Notes: generated from the sequence alone by a model not told the origin. A stretch of 64,000 nt of DNA from an uncultured Acidobacteriota bacterium (GCA_963739795.1 CAVUBL010000012.1:19761-83760); one strand, 5' to 3'. Shown: positions 21,346 to 23,045, counted from the first letter of the stretch. Made by a program: numbers and translations.

Positions 21346-23045
21346 TTGTCTGACTCCAAGACCCTGCGCGTGGGGCTCCTCGCCCCGGTTCACGACCTCG
21401 ATCCTCGGACCGGCCGGGATTTCGTCGGCGCCACGATCATCGAGCAGGTGTTCGAGACGCCCTTGGAGCCCGCGGAGGAGATCACCCAGCCTGCCCGCCC
21501 GCTCCTGTTCTCGGAGGGGCTCACGAGGGAGGCCGGCGGCCGCACGTTCTCGGCACCGGTCCGCGACGGTGTGCGCTTCTCCGACGGGACGCCGCTCACC
21601 GCCGAGCTGATGGCGAAGATCCTGTCGGAGGCGAGCCGGCTCGCCGACCAGGCGCGGGTGGAGGCCCACGAGAACCGCGTCCTCTTCCACCTCGATCATC
21701 CGGCGTCCCGGTTCGACCACGTCCTCACCCACCGGTACTGCGAGATCGGGCTCCGGAAAGGCGGCGAGACCTTAGGCACCGGGCCCTACCGTGTCGCCGC
21801 AGACTCGACGCCCGAGCGCATCCGCCTGGTGGCGAACCCGGAGCGCTCGACGCCTCCCGAGATCGAGGAGCTGCTGTTCGAGGCCTACCCGCCGGACGAC
21901 GACGGCGTGCCCGCGGCCCTGTTGCAGGCGATCGAGGCCGGCGAGGTCGAGTTCTCGAACGTCCTCTCCCGCGAGCACATCGCCGGGCTCAAGGGCGTGC
22001 GCAAGTGGCTCGAACCAGGAATCGCCACGGCTAGGAGTCTGCGCGGCAGAAACACGTAGCCGCGCGCGAGGGTCTTACGGGGTGGATCCAAGGCGCGAGG
22101 AGGAGTCGATGCGGGGACATCGTGGACGACGAGCAACGCAGGAGACGCCCCGTAACCCCCTTGCGCCCGAAGGGTTGCGGCGGCGTGGGGCCGTCTACGT
22201 CGTTGCCGCTCCTCGACGATGGCTCGGCATCGCCTGCGTCGCGCCGCCTCGTATCCGGCCCCACGGCGCTCGCAACGCGACTGCACGTTTCTGCCGCGCA
22301 GACTCCTAGCCTCTACTTCAACACCGAGCGCCCGGCGCTCCAAGACGTCCGCGTGCGGCGGGCCCTCGCCCTGGCCATCGACCGCACCGAGGTCGCGCGC
22401 ATCTCGTACAGCAACCCCATGGTCTTCACCGCGACCGGCCTGCTGCCGCGCCTGATGGGGACCTGGCGGGACGGCATCCGTCACGACCCCAAGAAGGCCG
22501 CCGCGCTCCTCGCCGAGGTGGGGGACGCGCGCCCGAAGCGCCTTTCGATGTTCATGGTCTACGGCCCGCGCCCCTACCTGCCCCATCCCCGGCCGGTGGC
22601 GGACCACCTGGTTGCGGTGCTGGGGACCCTGGGCATCGAGGTGACGGTGCGCCAGGCCGAGAGCATGAACCACTTCTTCCGCGAGATCGAACGGGGCGAC
22701 TACGACCTGGCGCTCTCCGGCTGGGTCGCCGACACGGCCGACCCGGCGGACTTCCTGTACGCGCTCCTCTCGCCGGAGGCGATTCCCAGCCCCGAGCGGC
22801 GGATCGTGATCGACGGCAACCTCTCGCGCTGGAGGAACGCACAGGTCCAGGAGGCTCTCGAGCGGTACCGCCGCGAACCGAGCGAGAAGAACAAGGCGGC
22901 GGTGCTCGAGCCGGTGGCCGAGGAGATGCCGCTCCTCCCCCTCATGTACGGCCCGACGATCTGCGTCTACTCGCTCCGCGTCTCGGGCTTCAAACCCTCG
23001 CCCCTCGGCATCCCCCGCTTCGCCGACCTCTCGCTGGAGGAGTAG
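21346..23045 (+). pseudogene. Family-5 solute-binding-protein homolog (SBP_bac_5, peptide/nickel type) interrupted by a MITE insertion at 22031-22309
   Basis: N-terminal part TLRVGLLAPVHDLDP...GPYRVAAD...KWLEPGIATA and C-terminal part SLYFNTERPALQDVRVRRALALAIDR...PLMYGPTICVYSLRVSGFKP are both SBP-5-like. The inserted element separates them, bringing a stop and a frame change. There is no obvious signal peptide. Confidence 0.6.
22031..22309. mobile_element. MITE family B (~279 bp) with 24-bp perfect terminal inverted repeats GCTAGGAGTCTGCGCGGCAGAAAC
   Basis: gctaggagtctgcgcggcagaaac at 22031-22054, and its reverse complement gtttctgccgcgcagactcctagc at 22286-22309. CTAG sits at both outer edges. 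Confidence 0.7.

Follow-up and report, generated by a model that had tools for sequence, protein, structure and literature searches.

Here we show that the gene for a family-5 solute-binding protein (SBP_bac_5) in an uncultured Acidobacteriota bacterium is split by a miniature inverted-repeat transposable element (MITE) of 271 bp, inserted at a CTAG site. The window, i.e. the whole stretch analysed, comprises 64,000 nucleotides (GCA_963739795.1 CAVUBL010000012.1:19761-83760), and the element occupies positions 22035-22305 (unstranded). It is very probably non-autonomous, and its 19-20-bp ends are those recognised by ISKpn6-like transposases, which belong to the IS1182 family. IS1182-derived MITEs have been described previously, and the window MITE adds one more; the sole part that goes beyond the routine is that its interior of ~215 bp is shared among MITEs with unrelated ends, a sharing that is firmly observed.

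Removal of positions 22035-22309 yields a continuous frame of 1602 nt (533 codons) that matches Pfam SBP_bac_5 with E = 1.6e-42. The 5' part of the split gene (21346-22034, plus strand) ends at the insertion point within the codons GCT-AGC, and the 3' part (22310-23045, plus strand) has an open frame to a stop at 23043-23045. Among 897 database homologues of the binding protein, nine orthologues were aligned; the best three (P0001-P0003; 89-90% identity, 466-474 amino acids) are uninterrupted and carry the junction KWLEPGIATASLYFNTER (KWLEPGIATA/SLYFNTER) in identical form. Given that these three read straight across the junction, no codon was lost from the window gene. The DNA of orthologue L086 can be aligned with window positions 21210-22034 and 22308-23054, and it reads ACGGCCAGCCTC at the exact place where the window has ACGG-CTAG-[271 bp]-CTAG-CCTC; it is thus an empty site, without exactly the MITE plus 4 bp. 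A first-pass annotation, made from the window's sequence by itself, had proposed that an element bounded by inverted repeats and CTAG splits this gene, and had called for alignment to an uninterrupted orthologue; the empty site, the conserved protein junction and the presence of further copies at unrelated CTAG sites all bear the proposal out. The gene does not read through the insertion: an in-frame TAG inside the MITE (22057-22059, plus strand) ends the reading frame of the binding protein, to which the element adds 8 codons (...GIATA-RSLRGRNT-stop).

Because the gene gains 275 bp, a length not divisible by 3, and meets the TAG stop 8 codons into the MITE, it is probably inactivated and its function lost. 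Rickettsia palindromic elements are likewise palindromic repeats inside protein-coding genes, but they are inserted in frame and translated, unlike the 275-bp insert seen here with its early stop. Both gene halves are without further frameshifts or stops, which suggests that the insertion is recent. Misplacement of a repeat into the gene by the metagenome assembler is an explanation to which we give hardly any weight: although copies often lie at contig ends in metagenomes, so that the repeat does disturb assembly, the junctions are exactly those predicted by transposition (a single CTAG duplicated, codons complete, halves abutting at the Ala-Ser of the orthologues), and a misjoin would not reproduce them.

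The start of the window gene is most likely TTG at 21346, behind a GGGAGG motif, a position that corresponds to the starts of the orthologues. In each of the nine that were aligned, the protein begins no more than 15 residues from a conserved LRVGLLAPVH block, so that the absence of a signal peptide, noted earlier for the window protein, is true of the entire orthologue group. In L086 the SBP_bac_5 gene does not adjoin genes for ABC-transporter permeases or ATPases; the protein may be a cytoplasmic or an orphan representative of the family. A candidate second interrupted orthologue, P0114, proved to be a frameshifted gene call and not an insertion.

At the insertion the window reads ...ATCGCCACGG-CTAG-GAGTCTGCGCGGCAGAAAC...GTTTCTGCCGCGCAGACTC-CTAG-CCTCTAC.... 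The left terminal inverted repeat, GAGTCTGCGCGGCAGAAAC (22035-22053, plus strand), is of the ISKpn6/IS1182 type, and the right one (22287-22305, minus strand) is its perfect reverse complement (19/19 positions). Copies of the CTAG target lie at 22031-22034 on the left, where the duplicated segment is either all 4 nt or the central TA only, and at 22306-22309 on the right (both unstranded). Counting the neighbouring G/C as part of the element gives a repeat of 20 bp; with termini GGAGTC...GACTCC and a TA duplication, the limits of the MITE become 22034-22306 (273 bp). The span of 279 bp first annotated (22031-22309) corresponds to the 271-bp MITE plus both CTAGs, and its host-like GC content was confirmed (69.7% versus 69.8% for the window). 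The repeats were described there as perfect and 24 bp long, beginning at 22030; the perfection stands, while the length resolves into 19 bp of element and 5 bp of flank (G+CTAG), the repeat looking longer because the target GGCTAGCC is palindromic. An inverted-repeat search returned arms of 36 nt with 89% complementarity at 22029-22064 and 22276-22311. When up to 3 mismatches were allowed, the 19-mer was found at just two sites in the 64 kb, both of them ends of the MITE, against 0.05 expected, which excludes chance. A third candidate repeat site, CTAGAGGTCTGCG at 31987, has no partner repeat, lies in a low-GC-looking patch and was treated as a chance match.

The element has the properties by which MITEs are recognized: at 271 bp it is shorter than about 600 bp, it has no transposase gene or coding capacity for one, and it combines terminal inverted repeats with a target duplication, an empty site and multiple dispersed copies. 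The 279-nt span folds at -172 kcal/mol (z = -7.8 versus shuffles). No consensus match to a promoter- or terminator-like signal was found in the MITE, and a candidate coding open reading frame (ORF) with a Shine-Dalgarno motif and ATG, ending at the right-hand TAG, was rejected as it is broken in copies with another end type (type 2, below; ATG CCG TAG).

Further copies had been named as a check on the element, and the same repeat with the same interior was found at seven other loci, establishing that this is a real MITE family. Four copies are full-length (82-95% identity), namely L108 (95% over 271 bp), L044 (91.5%, in a related Acidobacteriota metagenome-assembled genome, MAG), L118 (87%) and L124 (82%). 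A fifth, L008, in the same MAG as L044, is 289 bp long with an 18-bp insertion (86% identity), and two incomplete copies, L101 and L121 (97% identity), are cut by contig ends. These copies occupy unrelated CTAG sites, some in an Acidobacteriota MAG and others in metagenomes. With a 21-mer from the interior, a scan of metagenomes identified 41 loci, many of them at contig ends, as for a dispersed repeat. In L108, the copy has on either side an end of a different CTAG-flanked MITE, represented there by two copies and itself present twice in the window, an arrangement indicating that CTAG-targeting elements do accumulate side by side.

The identity of the ends was established through their occurrence elsewhere. 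Among the matches listed from a species-representative genome set, the exact 19-mer occurs at more than 85 loci, in most of them with CTAG directly outside it, in Acidobacteriota, Massilia, Janthinobacterium, Piscinibacter, Marinobacter, Vreelandella, Pseudomonas, Chloroflexota, Tepidisphaerales and Fibrobacterota. Pairs of the repeat delimit 16 elements of 1504-1579 bp, all 16 flanked by CTAG...CTAG, and smaller classes of 48-63, 79, 112, 159-161, 257-289 and 347 bp; the end set of the window MITE also serves several unrelated interiors. A single ORF, of about 437 amino acids, is found in the long elements. Homologues of this transposase were found by tblastn in 26 loci, the full-length ones being 52-84% identical to that of L049, which contains the Pfam domains DDE_Tnp_1, DDE_Tnp_1_6 and DUF772 and scores 358.7 bits on the NCBIfam IS1182 model (NF033551; cut-off 270 bits) versus 58 bits for the highest-scoring IS5 model (cut-off 140 bits). 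Seven of seven transposases tested pass the IS1182 model (346-398 bits), namely L049 and six more, which include L071 and L078 (Thermoanaerobaculia genomes with the exact repeat) and ISKpn6 itself. Plasmid relatives are annotated as "IS1182-like element ISKpn6 family transposase", and the copy of ISKpn6 beside blaKPC-3 on a plasmid has the ends CTAG-GAGCCTGCGCGGCAGAAGCC and GGCTCTGCCGCGCAGACTC-CTAG, 1538 bp apart. We therefore state with high confidence that the MITE carries ISKpn6-type IS1182 ends.

The first-pass annotation had read the CTAG edges as a sign of an IS5-like origin. This holds loosely, in that IS1182 and IS5 transposases are related; derivation from an element of the IS5 family in the strict sense is, in our judgement, improbable. 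Elements of the IS5 group target YTAR/CTAG-like sequences and duplicate 4 bp, and the transposases associated with these ends share the DDE_Tnp_1 and DUF772 domains with IS5 and give weak sub-threshold scores on IS5 models (58-87 bits for the best model in the seven tested). These scores are, however, far under the 140-bit cut-off, while the IS1182 model was passed in every case, and the annotated relatives are named IS1182-like and ISKpn6 family.

Several very small elements consist of a pair of the same repeats around a short loop: L017 (63 bp), L024 (48 bp) and L030 (50 bp), to which L009 and L058 were added by eye. Their hosts are Piscinibacter, a Pseudoduganella MAG, a Burkholderiales MAG and a Thermoanaerobaculia MAG. 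The 50-bp element of the last of these (L030) reads repeat, ACGTAGCCGCGC, repeat, i.e. the window MITE minus its interior, and its loop has the same sequence as the 12 nt after the repeat in the window MITE.

CTAG is present at both edges of the MITE as first annotated, yet this need not denote a 4-bp duplication. As CTAG is palindromic, a 4-bp duplication (GAGTC...GACTC) and a 2-bp TA duplication (GGAGTC...GACTCC) make identical predictions for the sequence and for the empty site, and the two can be told apart through elements with non-CTAG flanks. Ten such elements served as the discriminating set: L040 (TTAG/CTAA), L017 (CTAG/CTAC), L051 (TTAG/CTAG), L065 (CCAG/CTAT), L080 (TTAG/CCAG), L030 (TTTG/CTAA), L043 (ATAA/TTAG), L064 (CAAG/CTGG), L039 (CCAG/CTGG) and L124 (TGAG/CTGA), the last of which fits a TGA triplet. 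By our own count, the 4-bp model requires about 21 mismatches over these ten elements and the TA model about 9-11. A 2-bp TA duplication within a preferred CTAG target is therefore favoured over a 4-bp duplication. In the literature searched, we found no statement on the size of the duplication made by ISKpn6.

These flanks are also what might recommend an assignment to IS630/Tc1-mariner. CTAG is the classical insertion site of transposases of that group, which duplicate its central TA, nearly every copy studied here is CTAG-flanked, and the non-canonical flanks fit the TA duplication better, so that MITEs of the IS630/Tc1-mariner type resemble the window MITE in both target and probable duplication. 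The transposase linked to the ends is of another family, however: the exact repeat bounds 1.5-kb elements whose sole long ORF is an IS1182-family transposase (DDE_Tnp_1 and DUF772), and none of the seven transposases matched an IS630 model (E limit 1e-3 for L049 and 1e-20 for the other six). We accordingly regard an IS630/Tc1-mariner origin as very unlikely, even less likely than a strict IS5 one.

CTAG is scarce in the window, with 35 sites versus 123 expected (about 3.5-fold depletion), so that a CTAG within coding sequence belongs to a small number of targets on offer; after each insertion there are two. Of the 35 sites, 14 lie within 29.0-32.3 kb; the part from ~31.9 to 32.3 kb seems by eye to have a much lower GC content than other parts of the window and may be foreign DNA. 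The commonest non-CTAG left flank is CCAG, at 8 of the 90 oriented ends listed (L001, L011, L015, L027, L039, L055, L065 and L066), and its right-hand equivalent CTGG is found in L039, L042, L057, L058 and L064. Both correspond to a T-to-C change in a CTAGG context on either strand, the pattern expected from very-short-patch-type repair eroding CTAG.

It is important to note several points that weigh against an IS1182-driven insertion as described here. The MITE is present as a single copy within the window, where tblastn detected no transposase homologue and thus no IS1182 transposase, such that a partner in the same cell is putative. No similarity was seen between its interior and the sub-terminal parts of the full-length elements retrieved, so that the MITE is not a simple internal-deletion derivative of those elements. 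The nearest empty-site orthologue is only about 88-90% identical at the DNA level and has GCC-AGC (CCAG) where the window has GCT-AGC, meaning that the ancestral CTAG is inferred and not observed.

Set against known systems, the window MITE is closest in its ends to ISKpn6, the IS1182-family element next to blaKPC in Tn4401: the end GAGYCTGCGCGGCAGA... agrees at 17 of 19 positions at each end, CTAG is present on both flanks, and the transposase is of the type found in the related full-length elements. ISKpn6 differs in being autonomous, with its own transposase gene within 1538 bp, whereas the window MITE has none within 271 bp and contains an unrelated hairpin interior. Among MITEs, the nearest by description is MITEPye1 of Paracoccus yeei, an IS1182-family MITE with 18-bp repeats like those of ISPye18, 4-bp direct repeats and a stem-loop fold, found in intergenic positions at 1-3 copies per chromosome (PMC11578231). 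Both elements are small and non-coding, with IS1182-type repeats of ~18 bp, short direct repeats and a predicted long stem-loop; the window MITE differs in being intragenic, in belonging to the ISKpn6-like CTAG group and in sharing its interior with MITEs that have other ends. Archaeal MITEs related to ISMac2 have also been described (PMC3852290). Within the IS1182 family, ISPse1 was captured experimentally with 4-bp direct repeats, and ISPsy36 is reported to target the palindromic tetranucleotide GGCC (PMC3281130, PMC8027508). The latter parallels the use of CTAG by the window MITE, although ISPse1 and ISPsy36 are full-length elements with other target sequences; where the target is palindromic, a reported 4-bp duplication is indistinguishable from a 2-bp one.

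The interior of the window MITE (22063-22277, unstranded) is common to MITEs with other repeat types. Most metagenome matches cover just element positions 29-243, at ~87% identity, and have ends that differ from those in the window. Type 1 ends (CTAG-GAGTCTGCGCGGCAGAAAC) are those of the window MITE and the seven loci L044, L008, L108, L118, L124, L101 and L121. Type 2 ends (CTAG-TGGTCTGAGTCACCCATCCCTTGCCTTCC) were found at ~30 loci plus 3 variants (e.g. L092, L111, L127 and L089), and type 3 ends (CTAG-CAGTCCGTGGTGAAAGTC) at two loci, L097 and L090, while one locus, L107, is a chimera with a type-3 left end and a type-1 right end. The three types are unrelated, having in common just a terminal NNGTCYGNG motif, and yet the interior is 83-100% identical across all three and the chimera. 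Comparison of four full-length type-2 copies with one another gave 99-100% identity, which suggests a recent burst.

The exchange of ends is flush, in that L124 (type 1) and L097 (type 3) both have CGCGCGGTCGCGCGCA... right after a terminal block of ~18 bp. Furthermore, interior identity does not track repeat type: the interior of L118 (type 1) is 93-94% identical to those of L097 (type 3) and the chimera L107 versus 83-87% to other type-1 interiors. In the chimera, the left half shows 97% identity to L097 and the right half 99% identity to L118, and all three loci derive from one metagenome (Ga0210124). Parents of types 2 and 3 were sought in the window, all retrieved loci and viral contigs, and in plasmids by short-query BLAST; none was found, the searches yielding just MITE copies or chance-level matches. 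Two candidates, L130 and L114, were rejected, the former being a phage terminase region and the latter a lone match. Recombination between the interiors of neighbouring elements would give chimeras such as L107, and abortive gap repair with template switching could supply a new end set with its interior.

Two folds were compared for this interior. The best single-sequence fold of the MITE is one long hairpin; alternatively, the two halves of the interior (about 22064-22166 and 22174-22276, unstranded) are predicted to fold on themselves as adjacent hairpins, at -55 and -61 kcal/mol (-116 kcal/mol in total). RNAalifold applied to 10 diverse copies selects the two-hairpin form, in which 97.4% of cells are paired and 10 pairs are changed on both sides (21 such cells), with columns 7 and 100, for example, pairing as UA, AU, GC and CG, i.e. 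all four Watson-Crick types in 10 sequences. The observed value was reached by 0 of 500 shuffles in four of five measures, and slid controls collapse. The long-range hairpin is 89.9% paired, with two-sided changes matched by 288 of 500 shuffles and thus no excess covariation; it was rejected as the conserved structure since, while it is the minimum-energy form for one sequence, covariation across copies does not support it.

These observations raise the possibility, which we hold tentatively and consider less probable than its negation, that the two-hairpin interior is a structure-constrained module under selection (e.g. for transposition efficiency, or as an RNA or protein-binding element) that moves between sets of transposon ends. 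In its favour are the occurrence of one interior on three unrelated repeat types and a chimera, interior similarity that cuts across repeat type, and pairing and covariation that exceed those of shuffles for the two-hairpin form and not for the long-range hairpin. Against it, the structure was derived from the same alignment in which it was evaluated, comprising 10 related sequences, and template switching in quasi-palindromes can mimic compensatory changes without selection. The MITE has no Rfam match and, as noted, no promoter- or terminator-like signal; the interior was never seen without transposon ends in the 44 loci outside the window; and parent elements for types 2 and 3 were not found.

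Returning to the window insertion and its IS1182-type ends, the following course of events is proposed. A transposase from a full-length copy elsewhere would bind both ends of the MITE, mobilisation in trans by an IS1182-type transposase being what the sequence of the ends points to, with none encoded in the window. The MITE would then have inserted into the CTAG formed by the GCT-AGC (Ala-Ser) codons of the solute-binding-protein gene, and repair of the staggered cut would have duplicated the target, probably its central TA, regenerating CTAG on either side. The gene would thereby have gained 275 bp and a TAG stop, and would have been inactivated.

Other repeats are present in the window. A third small element, of which two copies (5810-5984 and 47499-47673) are 97% identical, has the terminal repeat CCTGGACTATTCATGAG and is the MITE whose two ends flank the type-1 copy in metagenome locus L108. 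The copy at 47499-47673 has CTAG on both sides (47495-98 and 47674-77) and abuts the TAG stop of a minus-strand ORF (47674..49101), and the copy at 5810-5984 is bordered by ATAG to its left and by CTAG to its right. A second MITE-like element, seen in single copy at 4486-4665, has 50-nt arms that are 78% complementary and include the core AGTACTCCGGCGCAGAAATACG, perfect over 22 nt; at the left it ends in CAGTCTGAG, similar to the termini of types 2 and 3 (NNGTCYGNG), and its flanks (TGA/TAA) suggest a TNA-type target. Between CTAGs at 5985 and 6315 lie 115-nt direct repeats (5996-6110 and 6181-6295; 92% identical, 185 nt apart), with three copies of a small hairpin motif, ACCCCGGAGGGCCGGGGGCTC, within the same interval (6008, 6141 and 6193). 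An inverted repeat at 9264-9365, with 37-nt arms that are 86% complementary and 28 nt apart, consists of tandem GCGCAGAGGC-like motifs. Finally, the region from 59.8 to 63.9 kb contains 15 copies of a 46-nt coding repeat (GACTTCGACGGCGACGGC...CTCTTCGTC) in two paralogous stretches about 2.7 kb apart, which look by eye like Asp-rich protein repeats of the FG-GAP/VCBS type, and two 49-nt direct repeats are present at 63868-63979.

For the genome itself, the insertion is a routine event in which one gene was probably knocked out by a small transposon, and similar split pseudogenes are to be expected by annotators of MAGs from the same lineage. The analysis ties the MITE to a medically familiar group of insertion sequences, the ISKpn6-like members of IS1182, whose 19-bp end is conserved letter for letter across Acidobacteriota, Proteobacteria, Chloroflexota, Planctomycetota (Tepidisphaerales) and Fibrobacterota. 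Since each insertion regenerates CTAG twice in a CTAG-depleted genome, such elements make their own new targets, which may explain the arrangement in L108, with one MITE between the ends of two others. The interior with interchangeable ends offers a testable case of a non-autonomous element switching transposase partners; if the tentative view of it as a mobile structured module is true, bacterial MITEs would be able to change their mobilising transposase by swapping an end module of ~18-29 bp while keeping their structured cargo.

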